Assembly (NCBI GenBank): GCA_964016885.1
Contig: OZ024749.1
Coordinates: forward strand, 992,001 to 1,056,000
Length of the DNA stretch: 64,000 nt
Origin: Eledone cirrhosa
Taxonomy: Eukaryota
Direction: 5' to 3'
Position 1 is the stretch's first letter. Each line of letters opens with the position of its first letter. This document shows positions 116 through 25,253 of this stretch, one piece after another. Below the pieces are notes generated by a model. The model saw only the letters and a program-made list of their open reading frames with translations. It searched no databases and was not told the origin of the DNA. The translations under genes were made by a program, and so were the position numbers.

Positions 116-236
116 TTGTGCATATATATATATATATATGAAAAACAATGTTGTCTTTGAGATGCAGCAAGAGTGTATTTGAATACAACAACAACCACTA
201 CCAACGACCTGTGGTACCAGGGGTGAAAGTCAGTAC

Positions 237-271
237 CTGGCACATTGGTTTTGGTAGAGGTAATAAAATGA
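237..271 (-). other. Candidate 35-nt alternative exon (IILLPLPKPMCQ) with U12-like acceptor, sequestered in a long hairpin
   Basis: TTCCCTTAAT, 19 nt, AG; donor CAG|gtactg; open in phase 1; pairs with 361-420. Confidence 0.45.
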
Positions 272-1419
272 CTAAAGTAAAATAAAAATAATTAAGGGAA
301 AATTGATTAATGTACTTGGGCAGAAGAGATAATTGAGAAGACAAAATCTGTTTTAGTAATTTACCAAAACCAATGTGCCTGATACTAAACTTCACCCCCT
401 TGGTAGCATAGGTCATTGTTGTCGACACTAATACGACACATCCAGAAAGATCTCCATCACACATACAATCACAACTGATCAACTAAAACCACTTGCTGTA
501 GCCACACAATAAACATCCATTGTATATAACGTGGGATACCAGTGTGTAATCAGTACAAACAAATAATAAGTAAAATATATAGGGATGTTGGTATGTCCAT
601 ACACATTATTTTAAAAACCATAAACTTAGGAATTCTACAACTTTAGCCAACGAAATATGGGAACTGGAGGGAAAAGGAACTAGATATGAAATATCTTGGA
701 CAGTCCTGGGATTTGCTGACCAGTACAAACAAGATACGAGTATTTGCTATATTTGTACACTGGAATTGTACTATATAATTTCTGAAAAAAAAAAAATTAA
801 TAAATAATAGATTAGAATAGGTTTTCAATTGTAAACATAAACACTTTAAACCTTTCTCCTATTATAATCCTGACTAACATAGAATCTGATCCTACAAGCA
901 TACCCTTCCTCAATTCCATCCATTTATCACTGTATATATTAATGGCAGCAGAGAATACTTGGCACAGCCCAGACTTATCAATAGGAACATTAAGATGACA
1001 AAATGATTTATTACTACCGGCTTAAAGTGCCTGATAAAGAATTCTTAAAATCTCAGTGGAAGTGGCCCGTCACTGACCAATGGCATTAGAACTACCCTTT
1101 ATTCAACAAATCAACAGCTACTTCTGTTAACTATGTTAGTCCTGCCGCATGGGGAGGAAAAAAAATGATATAACTATCAATGCTAATGAGAGTTATTGTT
1201 GTTGAGAACTCTTTTATACATTTTCATATCTTTGTCTCTCAGTATAATTGTTAATATTTCAATACTTTTATGATTTTATATAACCCAGGTTTCTCCTTAG
1301 CAACATGCTGTCTCTCTATATATAAACATTTCCCTGTGTGAATAAAAACATTGTTAGACTTTGACAAGCTGATAAGTAAAACTGTTGAAGCAGAATATTG
1401 GAATTCTCGGAAAACATAC

Positions 1420-1434
1420 GTGGGATTAGCAGTT
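1420..1434 (-). other. Candidate 15-nt microexon (KLLIP)
   Basis: TTTCGTTAAT, 20 nt with no pyrimidine tract, AG; donor CAC|gtatgt; frame-preserving. Confidence 0.3.
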
Positions 1435-1779
1435 CTAGATGTGTTCATTTACATATTAACGAAACATGTGTCAGTTACATAATAAATATTAATCCTTCAA
1501 TTGCGAAATTGGTATAGTCCTGTGATTTATTAATTTCTATATAAGGGCAGTGCCCCAGCATGGCCTTAGCTGGATGGCTGGAACAGGTAAAAGAGTATAT
1601 ATGTATGTATACATATATACATATATCACTTCAGTGAAAGAAAATGAAAGACATCAGTATATTAAAAATACTGAGTGTGTGTGTGTGTTTAAACATAAAA
1701 AGAAGCAGATAGAAACACTTGCCTCAGTCCAACGTTGTGTACGAAATCCAGAAATGAATTAACAGACAAGAGAAAACAC

Positions 1780-1822
<43 letters not shown>

Positions 1823-2936
1823 TATATATATAATGATAAAGTAGACAGTTTTCATAATTATATGTTATAGTATGAATTAATTTATATGAAATAATTAAAC
1901 AACTGATTATTGATGAAACACAGTAAACCCTTTAGCATTTACATTACTCTATATTTACAATTATATTTTTATTGTTCAAGGCTTTACCTCATATAATTAT
2001 CTCATAACATTTACATTACTCTATATTTACTATTGTATTTTCATGGTAAAGGCTTTATCTCTCATAGTATCGAGTCTACGAGATTTTGATATTATCTAAT
2101 TTGAGAACAATGCCTTAACATCAGTATAAGTGGCCAGTTACAGCCAGTTTGATCAGAGAGAGGTGAGAGAATTCAGGCCAGATATGACCAGTTTAAATGC
2201 TAAAGGGCTAAATGTTGCAACAATATAATAGCATTGGTTGAAAGAAGATTAGCTACATACATACATATGCATTACAGCAAGCCAAAATTTAGAAGAAAAT
2301 GGGTAAAATGGAGCAAATGAGGTGGTGAAGGTATGAGATATGGTGGTGGTTAGGTAAGACTGGTGCAAATTAATAATTATAAACAACACAAAAGTTGAGA
2401 TTTTGTTGTGAAAGAGATAAAATAAAATAAATAAATTCTAATCTAAGCACAAGGCCAGCATTTTAAGGAAGGGAAAAGTCTATTATATCGAACCCAGTAT
2501 TTTGGCTGGTACTTTATTTTATCGACCCCGGAAGGATGAAAGGCAAAGTTAACCTCGGCAGGATTTGAACTAAGAATATAAAGGACCTTAACTCTATGCT
2601 GCAAAGCTTTATGTCTGATACTGCCAATCCACCGCTGAATAATAATAATAATAATCTAATATATAATGAATGAAGAACTGCGAGACTGTGTCAGGGATAT
2701 TTTTTCATCCCGTTATTAAAATAAGTTGGATTACTATGAATAAATCATGAATGAATATTATGTAATATATCTACTAAATTTCTTAGCTCTTGATTAAACA
2801 TAAATATTCTTGTATCTAATGTATTGCTTATTTCTTTTAAAATTTTCAAATGTCAACTTTCTTAATATCATAACACTACGCTGTACGCTATATTTTCCTC
2901 GCTTATATATCATTATATATATATATATATATATAT

Positions 2937-3110
2937 GGTGGATTGGCAGTATCGGTAGAGGGTCGGACACCATGCTTTCCAGCATAGTTACGTCCCTTTA
3001 TGATCTGAGTTCAAATCCAGCCAAGATTAACTTTGCCTTTCATCTTTACGGGGTCGATAAAATAAAGTACCAGTAATGCTGGCCGTGTGCCAAAAGTAGA
3101 AACAATTATA
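2937..3110 (+). mobile_element. tRNA-derived SINE (about 190-bp family). Other copies near 2430, 21715, 33085, 33320, 34800, 35480, 53468, 54205, 54458, 56005 and 62061
   Basis: A-box tggcagtatcgg, B-box gagttcaaatcc; core gcctttcatccttacggggtcgataaaataaagtacc resembles the Meta-domain SINE core. Confidence 0.88.
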
Positions 3111-4384
3111 TATATAAACGTTCATATATTTCCATCGCTAATCTCATTTTGTCCTTTTTTGTTTTCATAACATTTCGCTGTAATGCAGTTTAAATATATC
3201 GTCTTTTTTTAAATGTATCATGGATTACTTTATTGATTATAGAAGAGAGTGTAACACTTTTTACATATATCTACATGTATATATACTTGCGTATAATATC
3301 AATATACGCACTACACATGCTAGAAGAAAACTGGCCACAGGGTGGTTTTTCTGCTAGTAGTAGTAATAATAATGAGATAATTACATCCAGACAGAAAATA
3401 ATGGTAGCAGCTGTTCTGTGGAGATTTGATTTGTAAATTATTCACACAGAAACCATAATTCTATCATTTTTGTTTATGGATAATGTATTCATGTGTGTGT
3501 ATATGTGCATCTTTATATGTGTATGTGTAACTTCATATATGTATAGTGAAAAAGTAAACACATGTTCAACTAGTCATACCTTGTTATTTTTAATGAGTAC
3601 ATCTTAAATGTTATAGATATTTCATTCTGTTACTAGTTTCAGTCATTAGACTGTGGCCATGCTGGGGCACCACACCCTTTTACTACTTTCAGTCATTAGA
3701 CTGCGTCCATTCTTTATTTTATCAACCCCTATAAGGAATTTAACCTCAGAACATAAAGGACCCTAACTCTATGCTGCAAAGCATGGTGCCGATACTGCCA
3801 ATGCACCACTCTGTAGGACAATAATGAAGAGAAGGGGTCTAATGATAGAACCCTGGTGGACACCCACCTACACACTGAATTTCTCTCTGTACTCATTGTT
3901 GATTTTAACTATATATATATAGGACTGGGGTCCATATCATTCTACTGCAAAGTGGATGTGTAGGTGCCACGGAAAAACAAAGCACCCAGCATTCACTGTA
4001 AATGAGGTTGGTATTAGGAAGGGCATCCAGCTGTAGAAATCAAGCTAGAAACAGTTCCCATATGAGCAAGACAAGGCCAGCCGACTGCCGACAACAGGAC
4101 AACCCTTCTAACCCATGCTAGCATGGAAGAACGGACGTAAAACGGTGATGATGATGATGATGATATTTGTATAATATATATATAAATATATTAAAATAGA
4201 CACCAAACACGTTTTACACTGATTTACGAATGTTTCAATCACTTCCTGGGACTTTCTAGAATCAGTTATTTAAGAGTAAAAAAGCCCCATTAAAACCACA
4301 CAAAAATACTCGACAGCCAGCAGCCAAAGAAAATGCTTACATTCCAAAAATCTGAAATGACGCCACAATACATGGAAAATCTAT

Positions 4385-6207
4385 ATTATCCAACTACAGA
4401 GGTATGTCAGACCACTCTAGTACATTACTATATGTTGTCTAACTAGAGGTATCAGACCAGCCTAGTACATTACTATATGTTGTCCAACTACAGAGGTATC
4501 AGACCAGTCTAACACATTACTATATGTTGTCCAACTACAGAGGTATCAGACCAGTCTAACACATTACTATATGTTGTCTAACTACAGAGGTATCAGACCA
4601 GCCTAGTACATTACTATATGTTGTCTAACTACAGAGGTATCAGACCAGCCTAGTACATTACTATATGTTGTCTAACTACAGAGGTATCAGACCAGTCTAA
4701 CACATTACTATATGTTGTCTAACTACAGAGGTATCAGACCAGCCTAGTACATTACTATATGTTGTCTAACTACAGAGGTATCAGACCAGCCTAGTACATT
4801 ACTATATGTTGTCTAACTACAGAGGTATCAGACCAGTCTAACACATTACTATATGTTGTCTAACTACAGAGGTATCAGACCAGTCTAACACATTACTATA
4901 TGTTGTCTAACTACAGAGGTATCAGACCAGTCTAACACATTACTATATGTTGTCTAACTACAGAGGTATCAGACCAGCCTAGTACATTACTATATGTTGT
5001 CCAACTACAGATGTATCAGACCAGTCCAACACATTACTATATGTTGTCCAACTACAGAGGTATCAGACCAGTCTAACACATTACTATATGTTGTCTAACT
5101 ACAGAGGTATCAGACCAGCCTAGTACATTACTATATGTTGTCTAACTACAGAGGTATCAGACCAGTCTAACACATTACTATATGTTGTCTAACTACAGAG
5201 GTATCAGACCAGTCTAACACATTACTATATGTTGTCTAACTACAGAGGTATCAGACCAGTCTAACACATTACTATATGTTGTCTAACTACAGAGGTATCA
5301 GACCAGTCTAACACATTACTATATGTTGTCTAACTACAGAGGTATCAGACCAGCCTAGTACATTACTATATGTTGTCCAACTACAGATGTATCAGACCAG
5401 TCCAACACATTACTATATGTTGTCCAACTACAGAGGTATCAGACCAGTCTAACACATTACTATATGTTGTCCAACTACAGAGGTATCAGACCAGTCTAAC
5501 ACATTACTATATGTTGTCCAACTACAGAGGTATCAGACCAGCCTAGTACATTACTATATGTTGTCCAACTACAGAGGTATCAGACCAGCCTAGTACATTA
5601 CTATATGTTGTCCAACTACAGAGGTATCAGACCAGTCTAACACATTACTATATGTTGTCTAACTACAGAGGTATTAGACCAGTCTAACACATTACTATAT
5701 GTTGTCTAACTACAGAGGTATCAGACCAGTCTAGTACATTACTATATGTTGTCTAACTACAGAGGTATTAGACCAGTCTAACACATTACTATATGTTGTC
5801 TAACTACAGAGGTATTAGACCAGTCTAACACATTACTATATGTTTTCTAACTACAGAGGTATCAGACCAGTCTAGTACATTACTATATGTTGTCTAACTA
5901 CAGAGGTAATAGACCAGTCTAACACATTACTATATGTTGTCTAACTACAGAGGTATCAGACCAGTCTAACACATTACTATATGTTGTCTAACTACAGAGG
6001 TAATAGACCAGTCTAACACATTACTATATGTTGTCCAACTACAGAGGTATTGAACCGGTCTAACACATTACTATATATTGTCTAACTATAAGACCAGTCT
6101 AGTACATTACCATATGTTGTCTAACTACAGAGGTATCATTCCAGTCTAACACATTACTATATGATGTCTAACTACAGAGGTATCAGACCAGTCTGGTACA
6201 TTACTAT
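4385..6207. repeat. 47-bp minisatellite, about 39 copies
   Basis: Unit ctacagaggtatcagaccagtctaacacattactatatgttgtctaa; period read from 4864 to 4911. Confidence 0.97.
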
Positions 6208-6475
6208 AAAAACTTATTTAAACTAATTAATAGCTGATAAATTTAAAAAGAGAGATATAATATTAATAAAATAAAGACATATACATACACACATAATCAT
6301 CATCAGACGTTAAATGATGATGATGACACCCCCACACATATACAAATATAGACAGAAACATACATAAATATATACATACACTCACACATACATATACACA
6401 TGTATATATAGATATATACCCACCTACAAATACATATGCACATATACACATACCTATATTTATAGACACATATAT

Positions 6476-6510
<35 letters not shown>

Positions 6511-6558
6511 GACACACACATATATATATATATACACACATATATACATAAACATATA

Positions 6559-7278
6559 TCATCATCATCATTTTACGTCCACTTTTCCCTGCTTGCAAGG
6601 GTGGGACGGGTCCTATTCAGCATCTCTCCGCTTGTCACGGTCCTTCGTCATCTCCTCCGTGAGCTTCAGCAATCTGAGGTTTGCTCTCACCACCTCCACC
6701 CATGTTTTTGGTCTACCGCTACTGCATCTTCTTTCTACTGGGATTTCTTGGCACTTCTTCACCCAGCGGTCATCCTCCATGTGTATCACATGTCTTCACC
6801 ATTGCAGCCTTCTCTCCTGCACACCACAACTTATCCCTCTTATACACAGTTTCTCTCTCAACACATCCATGCTTGGTCGTTCACGCACATTGACACTGCA
6901 CATCCAACGGAGCATACTTGCCTCATTTCTCTCCAGCCGTCGCATATCCTCTGCAGTTGCTGCCCATGTCTCACTACCATGCATCATCGAGCATCTCACA
7001 CAGGCATCATATAACCATCCTTTCGTACTCAGGGAGAAACCTTTCTTTGTCAATAGAGGAAGCAGCTCCCTAAACTTCTTCCAATCCGTCCTTATTCTAG
7101 ATACTATGGCCTCAGAACCCCCCCCCCCTCCCATGCAAATCTGATCACCTAGGTACTGGAAGCTATCAACCACTTCCATAAAACCCACCTGCATTGGAAA
7201 AATGTGTCTATCACTGTGACTTCTGTCTAATTTCCCTGTACATCTGCTACATACGTATTTCTCCCTACCTGTTAGTTA
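6559..7278 (-). mobile_element. RTE LINE 3' fragment, same family as 12075-14085
   Basis: ORF 6796-7194 is homologous to the RT C-terminus; (ATC)n tail at 6559. Confidence 0.92.
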
Positions 7279-7778
7279 CATGAGTATATATATTCACTAG
7301 TAACTCTGGCGTTAACTTTATCACACATCATTCCCCATTATAAGCCTGTCTTATATGTGTATTCTGTGTGTTATGTGATTATTTATATAAATATTTCCAC
7401 CACTACCACTGCCACCACTGTCTTTCCTGCCAGCAAGGGTAGGATGATATATACATATATAAATACATGTATATCAGATATTCAGGCTATTAAGCTGAAA
7501 ACTAAGTCTCAATATATTTCCAGAAATGAAAAAGTATATCTGAACTGAATAAGATTCTTTAGTCTTTTAAACATGGCTAAATAAAGAATTTATACAACAA
7601 AAGAGAAAACATAGAAAGATAGAGCAAAAGAAGGGCAATAAAATAATAGAAAGAGACCCAAATCTACACTGATAACATGTATGATGGATAATTGAATAGA
7701 ATTAAGATTTCTTCTTTATGTGTAAATTCCTTGTTGAGCCAGTAACAGCTGCACTGGACAGTAATGGACGCAACTTAC

Positions 7779-7797
7779 ATGAATAATATTTAATGTC
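7779..7797 (-). other. Candidate 19-nt microexon with acceptor buried in a hairpin
   Basis: Pyrimidine-rich tract ending tgttgtag; perfect donor gtaagt; 7791-7813 is complementary to 7867-7894. Confidence 0.4.
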
Positions 7798-8479
7798 CTA
7801 CAACAGATGGAATATAAAAGGGTAAAGGTAGTTAAGATAAGAGATAGAATACTAGGAATATTCCAGATTCCATAGATGTTGTGAGGATCCATTAGCTATA
7901 GAAATCAACCATAATATAGCACATCATAGAGAGAAGTCTACCAAGGATGAAGAACTGGCTTTAGTTTAATGATAATTGTGGAAGACAGAACTGACATATT
8001 TTGTATGAAAAGATATGAGCTCTACAATAGATAGTCAACTGTTACAATATATACACAATAACTTATAACAACTACATTGTATACACAGTAAGTTATGACA
8101 GCTATAATATACACAAGTTATAACAACTATATATGAACTATTCTACACCTTCAAAAGTCAGGAATAAAAATTAAAATAGGGAGTTCTACTTTAGCCTTTC
8201 TCTGACTATTTCTAATGAAATTAACTCTATTTCAATTAATTAATGAAACATTATTGAAAATTATGTTGGAAGATTTAAATAATTAAATCAGAACTTTTTA
8301 AAATGTTTTTTTTTCATAGTACCAGCGGCAAATTTTGTTGAATTAGTATCAACAAGGTTCAAATATATAGCATAAATCCCTTTCTTATGAAAAACAAACT
8401 TTGGTAAGTTTGGTGTGCAATGCTGAAGAAGAAAGTATTTTATTTCCACTCAGATACCCTAGTGTTGTAATGAAACAGC

Positions 8480-10398
8480 GCAAAAGCACCCAGTCAACAC
8501 TAAAGTGGTAGTGCTAGTGACATGACAAAAAGCACCCAGTCCACACTCTAAAGAGGTAGTGCTAGTGACATGACAAAAAGCACTCAGTCAACACTGTAAA
8601 GTGGTAGTGCTAGTGACATGACAAAAAGCACCCAGTCCACACTGTAAAGTGGCAGTGCTAGTGACATGACAAAAAGCACCCAGTCAACACTGTAAAGTGG
8701 TAGTGCTAGTGACATGACTAAATACACCCAGTCCACACTGTAAAGTGGTAGTGCTAGTGACATGACAAAAAGCATCCAGTCCACACTGTAAAGAGGTAGT
8801 GCTAGTGACATGACAAAAACACCCAGTCCACACTAAAGTGGTAGTGCTAGTGACATGACAAAAAGCACCCAGTCAACACTAAAGTGGTAGTGCTAGTGAC
8901 ATGACAAAAAGCACCCAGTCCACACTGTAAAGAGGTAGTGCTAGTGACATGACAAAAAGCACCCAGTCAACACTGTAAAGAGGTAGTGCTAGTGACATGA
9001 CAAAAAACATCTAGTCCACACTGTAAAGTGGTAGTGCTAGTGACATGACAAAAAGCATCCAGTTCACACTGTAAAGTGGTAGTGCTAGTGACATGATAAA
9101 AAGCACCCAGTCAACACTGTAAAGTGGTAGTGCTAGTGACATGACAAAAAGCACCCAGTCAACACTGTAAAGTGGTAGTGCTAGTGACATGACAAAAAGC
9201 ACCCAGTCAACACTAAAGTGGTAGTGCTTGTGACATGACAAAAAGCACCCAGTCAACACTAAAGTGGTAGTGCTATTGACCCGAAAAAAAGCACCCAGTC
9301 CACACTGTAAAGTGGTAGTGCTAGTGACATGACAAAAAGCACGCAGTCAACACTAAAGTGGTAGTGCTAGTGACATGACAAAAAGCACCCAGTCAACACT
9401 GTAAAGTGGTAGTGCTAGTGACATGATAAAAAGCACCCAGTCCACACTGTAAAGTGGTAGTGCTAGTGACATGACAAAAAGCACCCAGTCCACACTGTAA
9501 AGTGGTAGTGCTAGTGACATGACAAAAAGCACCCAGTCCACACTGAACAGTCAACACTGTAAAGTGGTAGTGCTAGTGACATGACAAAAAGCACCCAGTC
9601 AACACTGTAAAGTGGTAGTGCTAGTGACATGACAAAAAGCACCCAGTCCACACTGTAAAGAGGTAGTGCTAGTGACATGACAAAAACACCCAGTCCACAC
9701 TAAAGTGGTAGTGCTAGTGACATGACAAAAAGCACCCAGTCAACACTAAAGTGGTAGTGCTAGTGACATGACAAAAAGCACCCAGTCCACACTGTAAAGT
9801 GGTAGTGATAGTGACATGATAAAAAGCACCCAGTCAACACTGTAAAGTGGTAGTGCTAGTGACATGACAAAAAGCACCCAGTCAACACTGTAAAGTGGTA
9901 GTGCTAGTGACATGACAAAAAGCACCCAGTCAACACTAAAGTGGTAGTGCTAGTGACATGATAAAAAGCACCCAGTCCACACTGTAAAGTGGTAGTGCTA
10001 GTGACATGACAAAAAGCACCCAGTCCACACTGTAAAGTGGTAGTGCTAGTGACATGACAAAAAGCACCCAGTCCACACTGAAAAGTGGTAGTGTTAGTGA
10101 CATGATAAAAAGCACCCAGTCAACACTGTAAAGTGGTAGTGCTAGTGACATGACAAAAAGCACCCAGTCAACACTGTAAAGTGGTAGTGCTAGTGACATG
10201 ACAAAAAGCACCCAGTCAACACTGTAAAGTGGTAGTGCTAGTGACATGACAAAAAGCACCCAGTCAACATGTAAAGTGGTAGTGCTAGTGACATGACAAA
10301 AAGCACCCAGTCAACACTGTAAAGTGGTAGTGCTAGTGACATGACAAAAAGCACCCAATCAACACTGTAAAGTGGTAGTGCTAGTGACATGACAAAAA
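8480..10398. repeat. 48-bp minisatellite (46-bp variants), about 40 copies, related to a SINE-internal repeat
   Basis: Unit aaaaagcacccagtcaacactgtaaagtggtagtgctagtgacatgac; 16-aa periodicity in the ORF track. Confidence 0.97.
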
Positions 10399-11803
10399 TT
10401 GACATTACTTATTTGTATAGGTAAGTATACGTTACCCGTATGTTTTCTGGAGGTTCGGTATACTTTCTCGTACGTATATATGCTTGTATTCGTTATAGGT
10501 GGATATATTATATATACTAGCATGTATGTATATGGTTATGTGTATATGTGTATTTCGTGTTTGTGCGTGTATATTTGTATGCGTGTTTTCACATATGTAA
10601 GGTATGCACATGTGTACATTAGTGAACATATGTGTATTTACCTGTAGGTATGTGTACGTGTGCGTTATATACGTATTTATGTGTGTATATTTATATACGT
10701 TTATATAATTATATGTATACACACACACACATATTTATATGTGTATTTGGTGTATACGTTTGTATGTGTGCGGGTACATGTGACGCGCGTTTACATAGGT
10801 GAGCGCGTGTTTATGTGTAGGTGCATGTTTATGCATGGATGGCGTGTGTTTTCACGTATGCACGTCTATGTACGTATATAGATGTGTGTATATATTTAAT
10901 TATTATTAATTTCAATAACCTCTGTCATTTTCGTTCTACTAATTTATTTACATTATTCTGAATTCCGAAGCCGAGAATCATTCAGTTTCCTAAATAGACT
11001 TCATTTATACCATAAATGTGGTTTTGTCTTTGCGTGTAACTGTTCTCACCGCTCCTCATAACAACGTATTATCTTCGCTTTTTTTCCGTTCATTACCAGG
11101 GAACGTCTCCACGAACCAAAGTATCGTCTTCCTGTTTTCCTTCGGTTGCAACGTTTTTCGAAATATTTACTTCTGCGTTCACAGATTGACTTTTTTAGTT
11201 TCAGAAGATCCCGTTAAGGGTGAAAGCAACGATTCTTTGCTTAAACTTTAATCTGTTATTTTAATAAATAAATATATATATATCATCATCATCGTTTAAC
11301 GTCCATCTTCCACGCTTGCATGGGTTTGGACGGGAGTTTTCCCACTTGAGGCAAGAGTGGTTGTCTTGCTCTCATAGGACTGTCTGGCGGGTTTTCTACG
11401 GCTGGATGCCCTTCCTAACACCAACCACGTTTAGAGTGTGGACTGGGAGGTTTTTACCGTGTTACCTACACGGCCACATTACAGCGTGGACTGTTTTTTT
11501 TTTTTTTGTCGTGACACCTACACGACCTCATTTGTTTCGGACTGGATGTTGTGGTACCAACATAACTTCACATTTAAGGGGGTGGTGTGGATGGGGTGGG
11601 GGTAGTGGGACGGGGGGTGTATTTTGTTAGAGGTGCCTACTGACTGTAGGTTTCGCTTTGTACTTAGGCAAGGCGGATCTTCTGTATGACTGTGTAGCGA
11701 CAAAGATCTCGGTCCAGTGACATTGTCTTGGAGAGGTGTAAGTATGTGAGGTCGGAATTTATCAAGTTGTCCCAGGTTTTTCTTGGTCTGCCTACTCCGT
11801 GGC

Positions 11804-11841
<38 letters not shown>

Positions 11842-11892
11842 TATATAGTGACGAAACATAAGTCAATTGCATGAACTCATAATCCTTTATTT

Positions 11893-14085: not shown

Positions 14086-14144
<59 letters not shown>

Positions 14145-14155
14145 ATATATATATA

Positions 14156-14200
<45 letters not shown>

Positions 14201-14251
14201 ATATATATATATATATGTGTATATATATATATATATGTGCATATATATATA

Positions 14252-14302
<51 letters not shown>

Positions 14303-14368
14303 ATATATATATATATGTGTATATATATATATATATGTGTATATATATATATATATGTGTATATATAT
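14086..14368. repeat. (TA)n microsatellite with TG interruptions
   Basis: Direct reading; source of the poly-YI ORF artefacts. Confidence 0.98.
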
Positions 14369-14987
14369 GAAATACCAATGATCGTTGGCAAATCACTGAT
14401 GAGGGACTAATTTTATATGTATTCCATGTGCAACCATGCAGTATTCTTCTCCCCATGTTTTTCATATATATATATATATATACATATGTATGTATATATA
14501 TATATATATCATCATCATCACCGTTTTACGTCCGTTCTTCCATGCTAGCATGGGTTAGACGGTGTATGTATATATTTGTATGTATATATTTGTATTTATT
14601 TATATGTATATATATATATATATATGCACACACACACCTTTTTATAGCAAGTCTGTTTATACAACCACCAATCAATGTGCCTTGTGTAATAATATAAAAA
14701 CTAGTCTGATAAATTGATTTAGGATTAAATAGGAAGACAATATTTTGGCTGACAGATTTAATCCATTGTCTGGTTTATGACATCATTACCAGCAACACAA
14801 CAATTACCCCCTTCTCTACACCATCTGGTTGTCGGATGCGTTTAGTAAAGGAAAGACTGATGCAAACTTCCTTCCACCAGTCATAAAGGCCCTACAAAGG
14901 TGTCAGACCACAATGACCTGTCTAAGAGATGCCAGCATGGAGAACAGGCATATAATGATGAGGAGGAGGATGATTAGAGCCACAGAA

Positions 14988-16651
14988 TAATGTGGACACT
15001 AGCCATGGCAACAGAGACAGTTACATGTAGACTCTAGCCATGACAACAGAGACAGTAACATGTAGACTCTAGCCATGGCAACAGCTACAGTAACATGTAG
15101 ACTCTAGCCATAACAGAGACAGTAACATGTAGACACTAGCCATGACAACAGAGACAGTAACATGTAGACTCTAGCCATGATAACAGCTACAGTAACATGT
15201 AGACACTAGCCATGACAACAGAGACAGTAACATGTGGACTAGCCACGACAACAGCTACAGTAACATGTAGACACTAGCCATGGCAACAGAGACAGTTACA
15301 TGTAGACTCTAGCCATGGCAACAGCTACAGTAACATGTAGACACTAGTCACGACAACAGCTACAGTAACATGTGGACACTAGCCATGACAACAGATACAG
15401 TAACATTTAGATACTAGCCATGACAGCAGCTATAGTAACATGTGGACAGTAGCCATGGCAACAGCTACAGTAACATGTGGACACTAGCCATGGCAACAGC
15501 TACAGTAACATGTGGACTAGCCATGACAACAGCTACAGTAACATGTAGACACTAGCCATGACAACAGCTACAGTAACATGTGGACAGTAGCCATGGCAAC
15601 AGCTACAGTAACATGTGGACAGTAGCCATGACAGCAGAGACAGTAACATGTGGACAGTAGCCATGACAACAGCTACAGTAACATGTGGACACTAGCCATG
15701 ACAACAGCTACAGTAACATGTGGACAGTAGCCATGACAACAGCTACAGTAACATGTAGACACTAGCCATGACAGCAGAGACAGTAACATGTGGACAGTAG
15801 CCATGGCAACAGCTACAGTAACATGTAGACACTAGCCATGACAACAGCTTCAGTAACATGTAGACAATAGCCATGGCAACAGAGACAGTAACATGTAGAC
15901 ACTAGCCATGACAGCAGAGACAGTAACATGTAGACACTAGTCACGACAACAGCTACAGTAACATGTAGACACTAGCCATGACAACAGCTACAGTAACATG
16001 TAGACAATAGCCATGGCAACAGAGACAGTAACATGTAGACACTAGTCACGACAACAGCTACAGTAACATGTAGACACTAGCCATGGCAACAGCTACAGTA
16101 ACATGTGGACACTAGCCATGACAACAGCTATTGTAACATGTGGACACTAGCCATGACAACAGCTACAGTAACATGTAGACAATAGCCATGGCAACAGCTA
16201 CAGTAACATGTGGACTAGCCATGACACCAGCCATGACAACAGCTACTGTAACATGTGGACAATAGCCATGGCAACAGCTACAGTAACATGTGGATTAGCC
16301 ATGACAACAGCTACTGTAACATGTAGACACTAGCCATGACAACAGCTACAGTAACATGTGGACAATAGCCATGGCAACAGCTACAGTAACATGTGGACAC
16401 TAGCCATGACAACAGCTCCTGTAACATGTGGACAATAGCCATGGCAACAGCTACAGTAACATGTGGACTAGCCATGACAACAGCTACTGTAACATGTGGA
16501 CTAGCCATGACACCAGCTATTGTAACATGTAGACACTAGCCATGGCAACAGCTACAGTAACATGTGGACTAGCCATGACACCAGCTATTGTAACATGTGG
16601 ACACTAGCCATGGCAACAGCTACAGTAACATGTGGACTAGCCATGACAACA
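14988..16651. repeat. 35-bp minisatellite (33-bp variants), about 48 copies
   Basis: Unit tagccatgacaacagctacagtaacatgtggacac. Confidence 0.97.
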
Positions 16652-17428
16652 AAAATACTAGGTAACAACCTTATTAGTAAGTAATATTATGTATTGAACT
16701 ATATCAGAGTTTGCTAGAGAAATATAAAATACGTATTTCTACATGTGAATTACATGACAAATACGTTCTACATGAAGTGTTTTAAGGTTATTTCACTTGC
16801 TAAAGCAGGGCTTTACCATGTGGGCTTCATTAGAAACTTTGTCTTATTCTCTACATCCCTGAAACACTGGTTTTCATTTTTTTCCTCCAGTTTTAGACAT
16901 GTCTTTCTTAGTTTTCCCCTTCTTAGAGTTCTTTGCACATTCCTCTTACCCGGATACTTTCATCCTTCCCCAACCATCTCATTCCATTTCTTTTCACAAC
17001 ATTAATCATTACCATCCTCCTCTATAATTCATTGACCTTCTCTCTCAGTGACACTCCACTCATCCACCATTCTCATTTCTATTCTTTCCAGTCTCTTCTG
17101 TTGCTCCACATTCATCGTCCATGTCTTGCTGTCATAAATCATGGCACTTCTCACACATGCACCACACACCTTTACCAAGACTATGCACACACAAATATAT
17201 ACATGACACACACACACACACCTCATACAAATTAAAAGTCTAATAAATACTATATATATATATACACATATAAAACATCACTAAAAAATTTCAACTTTTC
17301 GTTTATGTTAGCAGGGGAATGCAACAATAAAAGGGTGAGAGAGTAGATAATCATTCGATAAAGAAGCTTTAGGGATTTAAGACACTGACGTTTTTATCAC
17401 AGTAAACCAATCCAAGCCATACCAGACA

Positions 17429-17466
17429 TCAACAAATGCAGTGGCAACCACAACAAAAAGAGGTTA
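17429..17466 (-). other. Candidate alternative terminal exon ITSFCCGCHCIC*
   Basis: tttag acceptor; phase-1 join to the 25254 exon ends in CXC-stop, the Rab6-type prenylation motif; branch point weak. Confidence 0.3.
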
Positions 17467-17642
17467 CTAAACTTCAAACAACATTACACAAAACTTATTA
17501 AAATTGAATGATGAATGGTATACAAAATGACAGAGGTCAACATTAAAATAATTCAAAACAATAAATTATATATATATAAAAAAAGCAATCCTTGTTAATC
17601 TAGGTTTGTATTTTTAACTTTTACCCTTTTTTAAAAAAATAC

Positions 17643-17671
17643 CAAATGTCTCCGACCCTCCACCCCTGGTT
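17643..17671 (-). other. Candidate 29-nt microexon (KPGVEGRRHL) sequestered in a hairpin
   Basis: GCTTTAAC, 21 nt, AG; donor TTG|gtattt; GC-rich island; pairs with 17709-17733. Confidence 0.4.
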
Positions 17672-18789
17672 CTAGGATATAAAGCGGTTTATGTTAAAGC
17701 GAGGAGAGTAGATCCCAGGAGATGGTGAAGGAGCACAGTAAAATGGATGGAAGCAAATGATGATGATGTTAAAATTAATCTAAAAACTTTCCATCATTAT
17801 TTTATGCAAGAACATTTAAGTTATGTCCCAAACACCAGATAAATACTGAGAAATCTCTCCAATTACTGTATTATTTTCAAAATGATTTAAAATTGAAAGG
17901 CAGTGTCTTTCATGAAAATTATTGTAATGAAAGAGTTAATAATACATCAAATACTTATATATAAACTGTCAACAGTTATTGTTTGGTTGATAGGGTGGAA
18001 TGGGTAGTTAAACATACAACTACCACAACATACACACAAACGTACATATGTACACATATACACTACAGGTAAAATTCCGTTATGAATACGATTATAATAA
18101 ATTTTTCAGTATAACAACATTTTTTTCAATCCCTGGCCACACACTCGATGTTACAATAAATTCTTTTTTTATACGCCATGAATTTCATTATAATGGAACT
18201 TCATTGTAGTAGTAGTATTGCTGGAAATATTGTAAAGATGGCCTTCAAACTATCCCCATCCTGGATCAAAGGAAAGGAATGGCCAGTGCTTCTAAGAAAG
18301 ACAACTAGGTTATAGGGTAGGTAAGGAATTTGCAATGCCAAACTCTAAAACCTTTTCATATCAACCTGTCTGAAACTCTGGTTCTATGATACAACCTGTC
18401 ATATAGTGTTCATATTAAAACCTTCCATCATAATTGTACATAGGAAATTTCCTTTTAATTAATGTTCTAGATTAATGGCACAAGGCCAGTAATTTGAAGG
18501 GAAGGGGAAAGTTGATTAAATTGACCCCAGTGCATTACTGTATATCCCAGTTTAATACCGAAAAAAGAAATTTTACAAAATTCTTCCAGATATTTGATTA
18601 ATTTCAAAATGAATTGAAATAAGGAGTTACTGGGCTTCATTTCCACTCCTTTAATGGGTGGTCACTGATGCCTTATTGAGTCCCCTTCAACACACATTGT
18701 GTTTTTGAGTAGATATACATATGTATACACACACACACATATATACATATCTATGGCGGGTAAAATTCCCGAGATAAATATATACGTAT

Positions 18790-19310
18790 ACGCAACGGGA
18801 TGGAAGAAGTTCAGGGAGCTACTTCCACTGCTGCAAAAGGCTTTTCCCTCAAAATGAAAGGCAGACTGTATGATGCTTGTATACAAACAGCAATGTTACA
18901 TGGTAGTGAGACCTGGGCGTTGTTTGTAGAAGACTTGCGTAGATTAGAAAGAAATGAAGCTTGCATGCTCCGATGGATGTGTCTTAGTAATATACGTGAA
19001 CGGCAAAGCATAAACAAATTGAGAGAGAGACTGAGCATAAGAGGAATCAAATGCTGTGTGCAGGAGAGGAGCTTGCGTTGGTATGGACATGTGATGCGTA
19101 TGAAGGATGAGTTGCATAAAAAGGTGCAGGGCACTAGAAGTCGATGGAAGCCGCGGAGTGGGGAGACCCAAGAAGACCTGGGATGAGGTGATAAAAGCCG
19201 ACCTTACCCAATTGCACCTCTCAAGGGTGATGGCACACGACCGTGACCTCTGGCATCACGCAGTAATACAGAAGACCCGACCCCCCGCGGGTACAAGCCG
19301 GAGCTGAAGC
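18790..19310 (+). mobile_element. Degenerate RTE LINE 3' fragment, followed by a SINE tail to about 19563
   Basis: KGRLYDAC...MLHGSETW...LRWYGHVMR. Confidence 0.88.
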
Positions 19311-19574
19311 ATATAGACAATATGCCCCCACACCCTCCCACTGTACGGTGGTCGTGGAGGTGCCATGGCAAAAAAGCACCCAGCACTCACTGTAAATGAG
19401 GTTGGTGTTAGGAAGGGCATCCAGCTGTAGAAATCAAGCCAGAATCAGTTCCCGTATGAGCAAGACAAGGTCAGCCGACCGGACACTGCCTACATCAGAA
19501 CAACCCGTCTAACCTATGCTAGCGTGGAAGAACGGACGTAAAATGATGATGATGATGATGATGACATATATAGT

Positions 19575-19611
<37 letters not shown>

Positions 19612-20084
19612 AAGTGCCTGAAGATAGGGCACACTTTTGATCTTTCTTACATTCAGGAGATATAGTCAATATAGGGCCTTGAAACCTTAGGTAGTGCTTA
19701 TGTTTTGTGTATGAAGATAATATAATACAATGTGGGTGTGTGTGTATATATATAATTACACACACACATGTATGTGAAAAGAGGAAAAGCAGATATAAAT
19801 CAGACTAGCCTAGAAATAACTACCAGATATGTTTGCACATTAATTATTAAAGAGACATCACCAACAATATCAACACCTTTACAATGGTTTTATACATATT
19901 TGTATATTCTATTTTACAGATGCATTCACCAATTCCATAGAATATTCTCTGGATTTGGAATATATTTAAATCGTTCCTGGATTAGTAGTGTTTCTATTCC
20001 ATATCGTAAATCAGACATCTTATTCTACTGCTGACTGTGTTTTACATATTCACTGTCTAGAACTGCTCTCTCTCTTTCTCTCTT

Positions 20085-20122
<38 letters not shown>

Positions 20123-20394
20123 AGAGATGAAGCTTGACTAATAGAATGGACACAGCTTCGGTCGTTTCATCCCTTGCTCAATTACCAATTCAGTTTGTAT
20201 TATTAAAATTCAAACCCAGCTGGCCAGAGAGCTAGAAGATGACTTTGTGTGGGTGAGAGTGTTGAAATACTCGGACTTGTGCATCAATGTCTGCGGTTCC
20301 GATCTGTTGGCAGTATTCTGAAAGGTGCAGCCATGTGCAGAATATTAGGTAATGACAGGGGTTGTTAAATGATGATGTATATATATATATATAT

Positions 20395-20558
20395 ATATTA
20401 TGAATAAGAGAGCCGTTTTTATGTGTACATCTTTTTATTACAGAATTCTGTTCTATGTATTTTGAAAATGTCAGAGTGGTTGCATCTTTGAAATACGTAT
20501 AACAGGAATATGTAATAAAAAGATGTACACATAAAATCTGCTCTCTTATTCATAATAT
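20395..20558. repeat. Foldback palindrome, arms about 70 bp
   Basis: tatgaataagagag...atgtgtacatctttttattaca is the reverse complement of the right arm. Confidence 0.9.
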
Positions 20559-20979
20559 TGAAACTCCAGTTGATATCTTAGTGAGAAAATCCTAAGGAAT
20601 ACAAATCGTAGAGTACTTTACATCTGTTTACAAAAAAAAGTTGGTTGATTATAATCAATATAATTATATGATCAACAGTTTTCATTAATTGAATATATAT
20701 ATATTCATCATTTAACATCAGCTTTCCCTGCTAGCAAGAGTTGGACAGGTCTACACAGACAAAGTCAGTATTGAAGCAGGGCTACAGACCTCCTAGACAG
20801 GCCAAGGGATCTGTATCCTGCTTACATATGGTCATATCAAGAGCAGAAAAGTTGTGTCTTTTGACACAAACTGAAAGGTCCTCCTAACCCTTAATCTAGT
20901 CAACTCTCCCTGTCCCTACCAACATTTCTGGCCTTGTGCCTATGTTAGAAATCTTTATTATTATTATCATTATTATTAT

Positions 20980-21262
20980 TGTGTTATTTCGTTTAGCTCA
21001 GTTCTGTTTCTCTGTTGCCAGGTTCAGGCCTTGAACCTAGGGCTATAGAGGTTTTCATTGTAGAGAGAGAACCTGTCTGAGAATGTGTGTTGTTCGTAGT
21101 AGCCTGATCTTCTGTAGCTCATATTTGCTGATCTTGCAGGGAAGGATGCTAAGGTGCAGGTGATGATTTGGGTATTAATCCTAATGCCCCTATTACCACA
21201 GGGATAGTGTTTGTGGTCATCCTCCACATGTCGTTGATCTCCACTTCCAGGTCTTTGTATTA
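20980..21262 (-). mobile_element. 3' fragment of a restriction-like-endonuclease non-LTR element (Dong/R4-like)
   Basis: Minus strand reads YKDLEVEINDMWRMTTNTIPVVIGALGLIPK; abuts an (ATT)n run. Confidence 0.7.
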
Positions 21263-21952
21263 AAGTATAGTTCTTTTAGAAAATAGATAGGGAAAAGGCA
21301 ATTTGATTATTTTTAATCCATGAACTGCAATCTTAGTAAGATTAATTAATTAAAAGAAAGAAAAGTGACTTAAATGGTTCAATTATTCACTAAGAAGCTC
21401 ATTAGACCATTTTAAAAATGTTTAAAGACAGCTTTCCTTTTTAACATCTACTTATTTATCCAAGCCAGCAGAGATACGGTCATTCTGCCAGACTATATAT
21501 TTGGCACTGTCTCAAATACCTGGGACAAGCAAAGTCTAGTAGTCGTTTTTAGTATTTTACTGGTTTCATCCATTAGACTGCTGCCATGGTGGAGCCCATC
21601 TTTGAAAGTTTTACTTCATGTTACCCCTAGTTCTTATTTTATGAGTCTCTTATCAAACCACTAAATTATAGGATATAAAACGCACACACACACACATATA
21701 TATATATATAATCATTATTTCTACTTTTGGCACAAGGCCGGCAATTATCTCAGTGCATTACTGGTACTTTATTTTATCGATGAAAGGCAAAGTAACCTCG
21801 GCGGGATTTGAACTCAGACCATAAAGGGCCATAACTCTTTGCTGCAAAGCATGGCGTCCGACCCTCTACCGATACTGCCAATCCACCATAATGAAAATTA
21901 TTGTGTATAGTGCTCAGGTGCACTACAACTCATCAAAGGTACATGTACAATA

Positions 21953-22922
21953 TTAGGTTGTTTCGAAAATAATGGCGGATTTCAGAAACATAATTTTATT
22001 CTGGAAAAATTAGCAACAGAAATGTTTTGATTAGTCAAAGTATGAGCCGTGAACATCTCTGCATCTCTGTCTATTGACTATTCGGTCAAGAAAAGGTTCA
22101 TTGGTGTTTCGTAGAAAGAGCATCGAGCACACTTCAAAACGCTGAACTTTTTGATTTTCATTGAGCTCATGTGGTACCCAGTTATCGAGCTTTTTCACCT
22201 TACCAATCTTCTGCAGATGGTGTGAGACCGTTGCAATACCGACACCGAGTGCCTGAGACATTTCTCTGACACTTTGACGTGGGTTTTGTTCAACAATTGC
22301 TTTCAATTGTTCATTGTCAAGACTGCATGACTGTCCTCTACCTTCTTCATCTTCAAGGCTCTATTCACCACTACGGAATTTCTGAAACCACCTTCGTACT
22401 GTGCGATAACTTGTGGACCCCTCTCCCCATGCTCTGTTGATATTGGCAGCCCCCTTCGTACTGTGCGGTCACTTGTGGACCCCTCGCCCCATGTTCTGTT
22501 GATATTGGCAGCCCCCTTCGTACTGTGCGATAACTTGTGGACCCCTCTCCCCATGCTCTGTTGATATTGGCAGCCCCCTTTGTACTGTGCGGTCACTTGT
22601 GGACCCCTCTCCCCATGCTCTGTTGATATTGGCAGCCCCCTTCGTATTGTGCGATAACTTGTGGACCCTCTCCCCATGCTCTGTTGATATCGGCAAGCTT
22701 GACTCATGCAAGAAAAGTAAGCGAAGGTCCTTTTTTGTCATGTTCATGTTTTCTGAATGCTTCAAGAATGTTTTCTGTCTGAAATAAGTAGATAATTATT
22801 AAAGAGCATACATCAATTATTAAGTATGTCGAAATTCACCTAAAATATAATTAAAATACTATGATAAAATTGCGTTTCAAAACACAACATATAGAGCGGC
22901 CATTATTTTCGGAACAACCTAA
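21953..22922 (-). mobile_element. Internally deleted mariner transposon with a 5x 62-bp internal tandem repeat
   Basis: 24-bp TIRs ttaggttgtt(t/c)cgaaaataatggc with TA TSD; WVPHEL motif in ORF 22031-22306; catalytic domain absent. Confidence 0.93.
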
Positions 22923-23489
22923 TACATAGAATAAGGTAGAAATGTCAGGAAAGTGAACAGCGTACGAGTCATGATATACATGTGTGTGTGTGTATGTATG
23001 GAGGAGTAATATCAAGTGTAGTGTTGGTGAATGTCAGGAAGCATGGAGGTTTTGAAGGATGCAGTGCCCCGACCCTACATATGTGTGTGTGTATATATAA
23101 CGGATAAATTCCTGATGAGTATTGGGAGGTGACCACAATTAAAAAAGGTACTCAATATGTTAGTAGAGTATAGGCATCTTTATTTTATATAATAAAGATA
23201 TATATGCATGTGTGTTCAATGTGCTTCTGCAGAATTTCCACCTATCAAATTTCATTCACAAGGCACCAGTCAACCCAAGACTCAGGAGAAGACACTTACC
23301 CAAGGTGCTGAACCCAAAGCCATGTGGTTGCAAAATGAATTTCTTAACCACACAGCTAGGCCTGTGCCTATAGAAGAAATTTGACAAAAACATTCCCCAT
23401 GGAATTATATAAACATGTGGTTCTTATATAAAATAAGTTGGAAGATTAAAAATGGATGTTTGTTTGTTAGACTGTGAGGTGGATTTGAT

Positions 23490-23753
23490 CCTCTCACCCA
23501 GTTACTTTCATCCTTCCTCACATGACCCAGCCATCTCACTATTTCTCTTCACAACATTCACTACTGGCTCTGTTCCTCTCACCCAGTTACTTTCATCCTT
23601 CCTCACATGACCCAGCCATCTCACTATTTCTCTTCACAACATTCACTACTGGCTCTGTTCCTCTCACCCAGTTACTTTCATCCTTCCTCACATGACCCAG
23701 CCATCTCACTATTTCTCTCCACAACATTCACTACTGGCTCTGTTCCTCTCACT
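23490..23753. repeat. 85-bp tandem repeat, 3 copies, resembling a decayed RTE 3' fragment
   Basis: Units start at 23490, 23575 and 23660; similar to the single-copy stretch at about 52260-52350. Confidence 0.85.
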
Positions 23754-24911
23754 CCTCTGAAATACTTCACTCATCCATTGAACCTTTTAAAAAACTGAAT
23801 TTTTCTTCATACATTATACATTATGAGAATAATATCACTGACAGAGTTTCAGAAACATTTTTGGTTTTCCATTCCTTTCACCAGCCCCTCCCCCACCACA
23901 GTAAACTTAATGAAAAATTATACTTTGAAAATTAAAATTAAATGTAATAATTCCATTTTATAACTCTTACTATCCTGTAATGATTTAGAAGAAAATATAT
24001 AAAAAGAGGTTCATTCAAATGTTTATATTATCTTTACTAATGAATAGATCATTGTGAACATTTGCAGTAGACTAAACTAAAGACTTTACAAGCAACTACT
24101 AAATTATATTCCTTGCCCCTTATGTTTTCCAATGACCCTCCCCTACTTCACCTCCAGTACTGCTCTGGAGTCTCTCAATGTCTCCAACATGGTGGTAATG
24201 TCTACTTTCAGTAGTGAGTGGTTATGGTGTTGGACCCATCAACATAAGGTTCAACTCTCAGGCCAGGGTGGTGTGCTGTGTCATCTCACATTGCTCCAGT
24301 TACCACCAGTAGGAGTACTTGGGGATTAACCCTGCAAGGGACTGGCATCCTCTCCCTCACCCCTATTCATCTAGGGTGGAGAAGTAGGGTCTCTTGTACT
24401 CTCAGGTCATTTAACTCCACATAAAACCAAGAGAAACTCTGGCTTTAGTTTAACTTTTGTACAAGTATGGAAGAAATAATAGATTGATGATGATGATGAT
24501 GCATATTTAACTGTGGATCAACAATTCTAAATATTGAGCCTGTGTGACCTGTAATATGCGAGGAGGAGGAGAGGAGTTAACTATTGTGGATCCATTTGCA
24601 GCATGATGCAGAAATTGTTGAAAAAAAAACTAACAAAAAAATTAAAATGAAACCCATATAAAAGAAGAGTATAAACATGCAATGGAGAATGGAAGGATGC
24701 GCAGTGTTAAAAGTTTGGATATCACTGAATTGTTAAACCACAACAACAAAACACTATGGGGAGAATGGACACTATATATATATAATTAAATTTGTCACGA
24801 ATATACATAACATCTCAATGAAAAGAAATTGTTAAAAAGATCTCATTCAGAGAAGCAAATATTTAGAGAGAGTATCTGATGCAAAATTACTGAAGGGTAG
24901 ATCCCAGTAAA

Positions 24912-24967
24912 TTACTCTAAAGAACACTTCACATCTTTCCCTAGGGATATACTCACATTCAAGCAAC
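24912..24967 (-). other. Candidate exon in the loop of a 24-bp stem: 11-nt microexon (SCLN) or terminal exon ending CSLE*
   Basis: ttcctatgtttag|GTTGCTTGAAT|gtgagt; read-through gives SCLNVSISLGKDVKCSLE*; arms at 24882-24905 and 24981-25004. Confidence 0.4.
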
Positions 24968-25243
24968 CTAAACATAGGAAGGGATCTACCCTTCAGTGAT
25001 TTTGTATAAGATATTATATTATATACACACACAGAAGTATCGATATAAAATATAATAATATATAGCAATCAACCACTGATACAAAGGGAAGATGATAAAT
25101 ATAGAGAAAGAAATAAGCAGTTATATATTAGCACAGATAGAAAGCTAGAGAGAGAGAGAGCTAGAACATATGTTCCATTGTTAAAGGTTAAAATGAACAA
25201 CAATAATAATAAAGAAAGAAGCTTTGCTAAAATATTTAAAGCA

Positions 25244-25253
25244 GTAAGGATAC
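25244..25253 (-). promoter_or_regulatory. U12-type (minor spliceosome) 5' splice site GTATCCTTAC
   Basis: Matches the U12 donor consensus RTATCCTT at the point where Rab6 homology stops; poor match to the U2 consensus GTRAGT. Confidence 0.85.

Follow-up and report, generated by a model that had tools for sequence, protein, structure and literature searches.

How does a Rab6 protein end when its last shared exon opens into a U12-type intron that runs off the end of the available sequence? The question is posed by the window analysed here, a stretch of 64,000 nucleotides from Eledone cirrhosa (OZ024749.1, positions 992,001 to 1,056,000) that carries Rab6 on its minus strand. A preliminary description of the locus had placed alternative Rab6 tails behind one U12 donor, encoded by an array of micro-exons within the intron. 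The core idea of alternative tails from a single U12 donor stands; the proposed micro-exons, their U2 donors and the mechanism do not. We propose, at a probability of roughly 0.87, that the single Rab6 U12 donor is joined to a terminal exon A, and likely also to a terminal exon B, and that the choice between two prenylated tails of 22 residues, together with two 3' UTRs, likely rests with the minor spliceosome.

The Rab6 gene and its U12-type donor

The following Rab6 features were placed in the window.

60442..60495, minus strand: Rab6 coding exon (ATIGIDF...EDRT), followed by a U2-type donor
36772..36877, minus strand: Rab6 coding exon (switch), single copy within 204 kb
32913..33024, minus strand: Rab6 coding exon (ANSF...SEKR)
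27634..27727, minus strand: Rab6 coding exon (QVTT...NVKQ)
25254..25317, minus strand: final shared Rab6 exon (LFRRVAAALPG...PGE and one further base), covered by a sequencing-run contig with no differences
25246..25253, minus strand: U12-type donor GTATCCTT, phase 1, assigned from sequence, with matching donors in metagenome loci and in human and mouse RAB6A/B
1..25253, minus strand: in-window portion of the U12-type intron, with tandem arrays, microsatellites and dispersed repeats, leaving the window at its left end

The four other Rab6 donors in the window, all upstream, belong to the ordinary U2 type. The shared exon ends as the preliminary description had it, with GTATCCTT directly after 25254 in phase 1, and positions 25253-25246 carry the 5' splice site of a U12-type GT-AG intron. 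The same donor is present in three metagenome loci (among the 80 kept of 204 confirmed loci), on short contigs in which no acceptor was found downstream of it. A minor intron with a matching donor is also tabulated for human and mouse RAB6A/B (Olthof et al. 2019, PMC6717393), which share with the octopus gene the family, the donor consensus and the A before it. Vertebrate-type read-through frames ending in ...REDSIL point to the same intron position, which is an inferred one, as the table in PMC6717393 leaves the intron unnumbered.

Whole-protein comparison found every internal Rab6 exon that could be located to be single-copy. Vertebrate RAB6A and RAB6A' differ by duplicated, mutually exclusive internal exons of the GTPase domain; no such duplicate of exon 36772..36877 was detected within 204 kb, and in the octopus gene it is the tail exon that is duplicated, whereas the internal exons found are single. 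The genome holds no second or intronless Rab6 and no retrocopy, other matches being at most 53% identical. With a single Rab6 locus, there is no second gene copy able to own exon B.

Two terminal exons beyond the window

A six-frame scan extending 100 kb past the window located two candidate terminal exons.

G000:C9:978582-978515 (L003:6582-6515), minus strand: exon A, coding part of 68 nt, tail MTEVKLK...GSCSC
G000:C9:953230-953163 (L005:1230-1163), minus strand: exon B, coding part of 68 nt, tail NIELKPP...AGCSC

The introns from donor to A and from donor to B measure 38,671 nt and 64,023 nt. Exon A is preceded by the branch point TTCCTTAAC at 14 nt and exon B by TTCCTTGAC at 17 nt, both of the TTCCTTRAC type near the 3' splice site; the spacing before B exceeds the optimum of 11-13 nt given for U12 introns in PMC3584512. 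Scored with an untrained matrix that approximates the branch-point consensus, they take first and second place among the distinct sites ahead of the 3,435 AGs that separate donor and B. Branch points of this class ahead of the A and B tails are known from this genome alone.

Reading frame and tail composition single out the same two exons. A phase-1 reading that ends in cysteine occurs at 124 of 14,196 downstream AG/AC positions, and among these A scores 15.0 and B 14.1, with the next unrelated site at 7.5. A profile built from 65 non-cephalopod tails recovered A with an E-value of 3.5e-11 and B with 6.8e-6 (next match, 0.28). Each tail is open in phase 1, comprises 22 residues and ends in CSC. 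Both contain in frame a CIM-like motif of the form aliphatic-X-aliphatic, V-K-L in A and I-E-L in B, and a terminal CXC. No third octopus tail was found by the reading-frame scan in 125 kb downstream or by the tail profile in 204 kb. AATAAA signals lie downstream of both exons, and one contig continues beyond the first three of those 3' of exon A.

The junction to A was observed directly. In a 935-nt contig (depth 102.7) of run X20, a public run with no RNA label on record, bases 647-714 correspond to window positions 25321-25254 and bases 715-823 to exon A with 0 differences, and the 714/715 boundary joins 25254 to C9:978582 with no letters in between. A donor-exon contig was recovered from one of four runs (X20; X5, X14 and X2 were blank), and on exon A the runs X19 and X12 gave no contig and X18 partial depth; such blanks carry no weight. 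Read placement was aimed at the donor and exon A, and absent cover over the 25180 unit or the other islands was not counted. The X20 contig shows no differences across either exon, and differences seen elsewhere stemmed from repeat-derived contigs. The same donor exon is likely spliced to B as well in Eledone cirrhosa; the contigs placed on the donor and exon A include no junction to B.

Both tails recur in other species. Tail A is identical to that of XP_029648288.1 and is found in a Sepia protein and in the Logan entries P0032 and P0033 (28 and 10 contigs). Tail B occurs unchanged in XP_014781019.1, GAB1605358.1 and the Logan entry P0004, agreeing at every residue with the Octopus bimaculoides and Argonauta proteins; P0004 holds an entire 208-aa frame ending in tail B (4 contigs, the longest of 1,136 nt). 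The full-length cephalopod proteins that were retrieved all lack an insert at the junction. Pairs of isoforms that combine an identical pre-tail sequence with an A or a B tail occur, mostly as predicted RefSeq models, in nine species of gastropods and bivalves (Littorina, Babylonia, Pomacea, Mytilus edulis, M. californianus, Dreissena, Mya, Ostrea edulis and Crassostrea). The two-tail layout of Rab6 is common to molluscs. Oysters and Lingula have three Rab6 tails, and the second Lingula tail shows no clear grouping with B, scoring 45.4 against A and 42.0 against B.

On the proposed switch, A would be the default, since it lies nearer to the donor and its branch point is the better one. B would be chosen once the acceptor of A is skipped and transcription extends 25 kb beyond its poly(A) signals. 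Exclusivity would follow from both exons being terminal; because A and B are both terminal, no incompatibility between U12 and U2 sites is needed for it. The swapped exon would span everything from CIM motif through linker to CXC, and the two tails could modulate how Rab6 binds the activator subunit Rgp1 and the prenylation and GDI machinery, such that tail choice may set where or how fast Rab6 loads onto Golgi membranes. In the yeast work reported in PMC11618376, Rgp1 binds the tail segment containing the CIM and a tail swap mislocalises Rab6.

The same two exons could instead serve a switch of 3' UTRs that governs mRNA location, stability or level, with equivalent tails. We regard this as unlikely, yet as an alternative with some substance, given that A and B are of equal length (22 residues), both with a CIM and a CSC end, and that Cdc42 last-exon isoforms are described as differing in localisation driven by the 3' UTR (PMC6411841, 10.1101/366369). 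The yeast data point partly in the same direction, as tail swaps had a modest effect in vitro; tail changes there produced effects of about 2-fold, with normal growth (PMC11618376). Against equivalence, molluscs keep separate signatures across classes, MTEV.LK.TP for A and NIEL.P.EP for B, with 13 of 14 B-labelled tails scoring nearer to B, and the constancy of tail B across Octopus, Argonauta and one Sepia-type protein body exceeds the constraint expected of a generic linker.

It is improbable that exon B is a silent or seldom-used relic in Eledone cirrhosa and that A alone is produced. The lone informative contig does enter A unbranched, and the X2 model of Octopus sinensis (P0027) ends four residues past the junction, but contigs lose minor forms, and exon B retains an intact frame and stop, a near-consensus branch point and its residue-perfect match to O. 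bimaculoides and Argonauta.

Candidate exons within the intron

The preliminary description had placed its alternative exons in non-repeat islands of the intron, four of the candidate units in or under stems unrelated to the repeat families. The branch-like strings it quoted are present, some 21-25 nt ahead of an AG. Four of the seven named sites lie inside dispersed repeats (11213, 1455, 24967 and 271); 7797 is single-copy, and 17671 has three partial matches of 39-40 nt. Within 204 kb the 11213 site has 5 further copies, 91-95% identical, and genome-wide the 1455 site has at least some 40 additional matches (41 counting itself; 40 of 126 candidates scored). The stem element at 24967, with terminal inverted repeats of about 33 nt, recurs in at least 40 further long matches, with 40 of 196 candidates scored, and the element around 271 has 7 other copies. 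For the 25180 site the copy search covered 204 kb. Two of these repeats fall outside the proposed switch.

24873..25013, no strand assigned: MITE-like dispersed element, bounded by terminal inverted repeats, that holds the 24967 hairpin
202..418, no strand assigned: inverted-repeat dispersed element containing the 271/291 unit

The proposed stems fare unevenly. That at 24967 is strong (z -5.9) and that at 271 weaker (z -2.2), whereas those at 17671 (z -0.3) and 7797 (z +1.0) are at shuffle level; the two that fold sit in repeat elements, contrary to the claimed independence from repeats. With low-complexity windows excluded, very stable folding windows number 2 of 207 in the U12 intron, compared with 8 of 406 for the remaining Rab6 introns. 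Long-range pairing of the donor is likewise at control level: its proximal 1.5 kb had 0 matches to the flank of A and one 11-mer to that of B, against 0-3 in 40 control regions. The stems proposed to gate the exons are unstable or are repeat elements, and the analysis turned up nothing in favour of hairpin gating or editing.

The density of U12-like sites is at or below that of shuffles and of the other Rab6 introns, and the enrichment implied by an array is missing. At score thresholds of 4, 8, 10 and 12 on the same untrained matrix, the interval 200-25253 contains 40, 7, 2 and 0 distinct branch-like sites before an AG, compared with 53.4, 8.1, 2.7 and 0.6 in thirty shuffles and 56.4, 5.0, 2.9 and 0.7 per 25 kb in the other Rab6 introns. 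The antisense strand (23, 3, 2 and 0) is the sole control that leans toward an array. None of the named units ends in cysteine in phase 1, and none encodes a prenylation tail. As mutually exclusive internal exons of a U12/U2 hybrid system they are unenriched and of mixed exit phases, and they are missing from the proteins and the contig.

An in-window set of micro-exons or terminal exons, gated by hairpins or editing and adding tails or poison exons, is accordingly very improbable and was rejected as repeats plus chance matches: the excess of weak sense sites over antisense, the 271 and 11189 sites ranking 12th and 13th among the 3,435 AGs, the ability of the U12 spliceosome to use variable 3' sites (PMC1874599) and trace cryptic use that contigs could miss would speak for it, but 25254 runs directly to A, the retrieved proteins lack an insert, and the branch-to-exon spacing, the site density, the repeats, two unstable stems of four and the absence of a Cys-ended tail speak against.

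Relation to known switches and significance

Tail-exon switches of small GTPases are known from CDC42 and KRAS, where they use major-class introns. As proposed for octopus Rab6, a duplicated tail exon in CDC42 and in KRAS4A/4B gives two lipid-anchored hypervariable C-termini (10.1101/366369, PMC6411841, PMC9882654), and CDC42 is described as also yielding two 3' UTRs (10.1101/366369, PMC6411841). The switches described in those sources alter the lipid motif, whereas both octopus tails retain the CXC, and the donor and branch points are U12-type. Alternative splicing that involves U12 sites, as proposed for Rab6 here, is described for the hybrid introns of JNK (MAPK8/9) and TMEM87 and for the nested U12/U2 introns of prospero and SRSF10 (PMC8329584, PMC3584512, PMC7244321). 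The textbook cases of regulated minor introns given in these sources are ones in which two spliceosomes compete; octopus Rab6 has instead one U12 donor and two U12-type acceptors, and a U2 site is unneeded. For vertebrate RAB6A/B, the table in PMC6717393 gives one branch point per gene, whereas in the octopus two terminal exons lie beyond the one donor, with a separate canonical branch point ahead of each.

The automatic RefSeq models of mollusc and Lingula Rab6 (isoforms X1, X2 and X3) already include tails A and B, with a third tail in oysters and Lingula. Our literature search found no paper on both tails, on their conservation or on the U12 class of the splice sites; the introns may already figure in mollusc intron tables, such as intronIC-based ones. 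The component kinds are known and the isoforms are already in automatic annotation; what is new is how the parts are combined and how old that combination is.

Events around minor introns have been reported to vary with tissue (PMC6717393). We suggest tentatively, at somewhat less than even odds, that the Rab6 tail switch is ancient and tissue-regulated, that it uses the minor spliceosome throughout, and that two or three duplicated terminal exons persist behind one U12 donor in molluscs and brachiopods, perhaps in protostomes as a whole. Two conserved coding canonical U12 acceptors behind one donor offer a natural test of branch-point choice by U11/U12 and of its coupling to 3' end formation, and the natural tail variants, which differ in the segment bound by Rgp1, bear on how far the hypervariable tail determines the activation and location of a Rab. 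If the switch is as old and as regulated as suggested, it would provide functionally distinct Rab6 pools, for example a neuronal form with its own Rgp1 or GDI kinetics and its own 3' UTR. It would also be a clean natural instance in which the choice of one U12 branch point over another is regulated, and one gene would be doing the work of vertebrate RAB6A and RAB6B.

Two terminal exons beyond the Rab6 U12-type donor

The Rab6 exons agree with public Octopus Rab6 proteins. Addition of 100 kb past the left end of the window and 40 kb past the right end, followed by a six-frame scan, gave two tail-like frames, here called exons A and B (C9, contig coordinates).

Rab6 features
9 kb past the right end of the window, minus strand: earlier Rab6 exon
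Window 60495-60442, minus strand: Rab6 coding exon
Window 36877-36772, minus strand: Rab6 coding exon
Window 33024-32913, minus strand: Rab6 coding exon
Window 27727-27634, minus strand: Rab6 coding exon
Window 25317-25254, minus strand: last shared exon, ending in A followed by GTATCCTT, a phase-1 U12-type donor
C9:978582 (start), minus strand: exon A, 38,671 nt intron from the donor, preceded by TTCCTTAAC, branch A 14 nt upstream
C9:953230 (start), minus strand: exon B, 64,023 nt from the donor, preceded by TTCCTTGAC at 17 nt

The remaining four Rab6 donors are U2-type. The U12 donor is old and already known. RAB6A and RAB6B of human and mouse are given in PMC6717393 as minor-intron genes with donors of the same form, the S-I-L signature after the shared exon recurs in Rab6 read-through frames, vertebrate-type and invertebrate alike, and the donor itself, in phase 1, is present in three metagenome loci. 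A second GTATCCTT string occurs at window 55250 on the plus strand, opposite to Rab6. DNA locus L056 (1240-1400) has a short intron at the same position with a GTAAGT donor, an apparent U12-to-U2 conversion, and in three genomic-looking loci (L028, L030, L038) the shared exon continues into an A-type tail without an intron.

Exons A and B each have 68 coding bases including the stop (identical at 30 of 68), and both complete the phase-1 codon to give 22 residues with a CSC end. Their branch points are the two best distinct ones among 3,435 AG sites. A Cys-ended reading is found at 124 of 14,196 AG/AC positions in 125 kb, with A and B at the top, and they are the sole matches in 204 kb to a tail profile (65 tails, 8 cephalopod ones excluded). 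Since a genome search gave a single Rab6 locus (other matches ≤53% identical) and the Rab6 exons identified are each single-copy across 204 kb, exon B belongs to this gene. A perfect TTCCTTGAC branch string also lies at window 30781-30773, minus strand, within the U2 intron that precedes exon 27727; no AG follows within 45 nt, and it is likely a chance occurrence.

Branch-like sites within the U12 intron

The preliminary description proposed a hairpin-gated array of alternative micro- or terminal exons at 200-25253, with U12-like branch points before several of them. The observation is partly confirmed and the interpretation partly supported: the quoted branch-like strings are present, but the array fails on counts against controls, repeats, stems, phases and the absence of any Cys-ended tail. 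Every AG received a score from a branch-point matrix that approximates the U12 consensus.

Distinct branch-like sites at thresholds 4, 8, 10 and 12
Window 200-25253: 40, 7, 2, 0
Thirty dinucleotide shuffles: 53.4, 8.1, 2.7, 0.6
Other Rab6 introns, per 25 kb: 56.4, 5.0, 2.9, 0.7
Antisense strand: 23, 3, 2, 0

Only the antisense strand leans towards an array. Among the 3,435 AG sites, branch points ranked 12 (site 271), 13 (11189), about 66 (1434), 93 (17671), about 123 (25160), 722 (24967) and 1289 (7797). Named sites with a recognisable branch string have it 21-25 nt from the exon, and PMC3584512 gives the optimum as 11-13 nt.

The sites had been called non-repeat islands, which is incorrect for four of the seven: 11213 (five more copies nearby, searched within 204 kb), 1455 (about 40 other genome matches; 40 of 126 candidates scored) and 271 (seven other copies) lie in dispersed repeats, as does 24967, in an element with terminal inverted repeats that has 40 further long matches (40 of 196 candidates scored). 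Site 7797 is single-copy and 17671 nearly so; copies of 25180 were looked for within 204 kb. Better-than-shuffle folding is confined to the two repeat-borne stems, at 24967 and 271 (z -5.9 and -2.2), the other named units ranging from -0.6 to +2.0. With low-complexity windows dropped, 2 of 207 windows were very stable in the U12 intron versus 8 of 406 in other introns. As Rab6 tails, the candidate units have mixed exit phases, and none yields a Cys-ended tail.

Other features were noted in this region. An intronic read-through frame at window 25080-25125, minus strand, contains N-C-L-F-L about 45 codons past the donor, and read-through P0001, from a different cephalopod-type contig, has these residues about equally far out. 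The shared motif may be a conserved intronic element, or T-rich DNA may have produced it by chance. At 20395-20558 lies an inverted repeat of 76 nt with 87% complementarity and a 12-nt loop, which the preliminary description does not mention. Minisatellite arrays occupy 4392-6208 (47 nt), 8482-10398 (48 nt), 14990-16651 (35 nt) and 25369-26538 (46 nt), the last of which starts some 50 nt before the acceptor of the shared exon.

Expressed junction and tails in other taxa

A contig (935 nt, depth 102.7) from public run X20, which like every listed run carries no RNA designation on record, matches window 25321-25254 at bases 647-714 and exon A from its first base at bases 715-823, both with no difference. 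It is a spliced junction from 25254 to exon A, with nothing between. Other runs compared with the locus yielded no usable contig, which speaks neither for nor against the splice. Tail A is found in Octopus sinensis XP_029648288.1, a Sepia pharaonis protein and two Logan proteins (28 and 10 contigs), and tail B in O. bimaculoides XP_014781019.1, Argonauta GAB1605358.1 and Logan protein P0004. The latter is cDNA-sized, as no contig carrying its full frame exceeds 1,136 nt. Because P0004 has a Sepia-type body, both tails likely span coleoids. Among the cephalopod proteins compared, tail B is invariant and tail A varies at 4 of 22 positions. A further O. sinensis isoform (X2, P0027) stops four residues past the shared exon (S-I-E-L), an ending with no corresponding exon in 204 kb of the E. 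cirrhosa locus; the model may represent exon B joined at a shifted position, with an error in the assembly.

Of 639 candidates in a profile search, 86 proteins were returned, and cluster look-ups supplied more. Same-species A/B isoforms with identical pre-tail sequence occur in Littorina saxatilis, Babylonia areolata, Pomacea canaliculata, Mytilus edulis, M. californianus, Dreissena polymorpha, Mya arenaria, Ostrea edulis and Crassostrea; most of these are predicted models, and the comparison was of proteins. A third tail is present in oysters, and three tails occur in Lingula anatina. With labels assigned by eye, the closer match by score was A for all 14 A-labelled tails and B for 13 of 14 B-labelled tails, Lingula being the exception. 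An Artemia isoform and one read-through frame share a similar pre-tail and differ in tail, which hints indirectly at tail switching in arthropods. Third tail types are seen in P0143/P0086 (oysters), P0094 (Lingula) and P0080 (pulmonate-type body). In oysters, isoforms P0144 and P0141 begin tail B with a two-residue difference, suggesting a second acceptor nearby.

A predicted tail switch

As read from sequence, U11 would bind the single donor while U12 engages the branch point of either A or B. Exon A is likely the default, being proximal with the better-spaced branch point; use of B would entail skipping of A and transcription past the poly(A) signals of exon A. AATAAA motifs lie downstream of both exons, and one contig runs beyond the first three after exon A. 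Because A and B are both terminal, exclusivity would be automatic, needing neither hybrid intron nor stem; donor-to-acceptor complementarity did not exceed controls. The arrangement would work in the manner of the CDC42 and KRAS tail-exon switches. The JNK/TMEM87 hybrid introns and prospero/SRSF10 nested introns rely on U12-U2 competition and are not of this kind. Searches of bioRxiv and of PubMed Central papers under open licences gave no description of the Rab6 two-tail/U12 layout.

A serious rival is that the switch serves 3' UTR choice only. The swapped segment contains a CIM-like motif, a linker and CXC. According to PMC11618376, in yeast Rgp1 binds the corresponding Rab6 segment, CIM mutation halves Rab6 activation, and Rab6 given a foreign tail is mislocalised while growth continues. 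Because the swapped segment is the part bound by Rgp1 in yeast, tails A and B would, by analogy, tune Rab6 activation or location.
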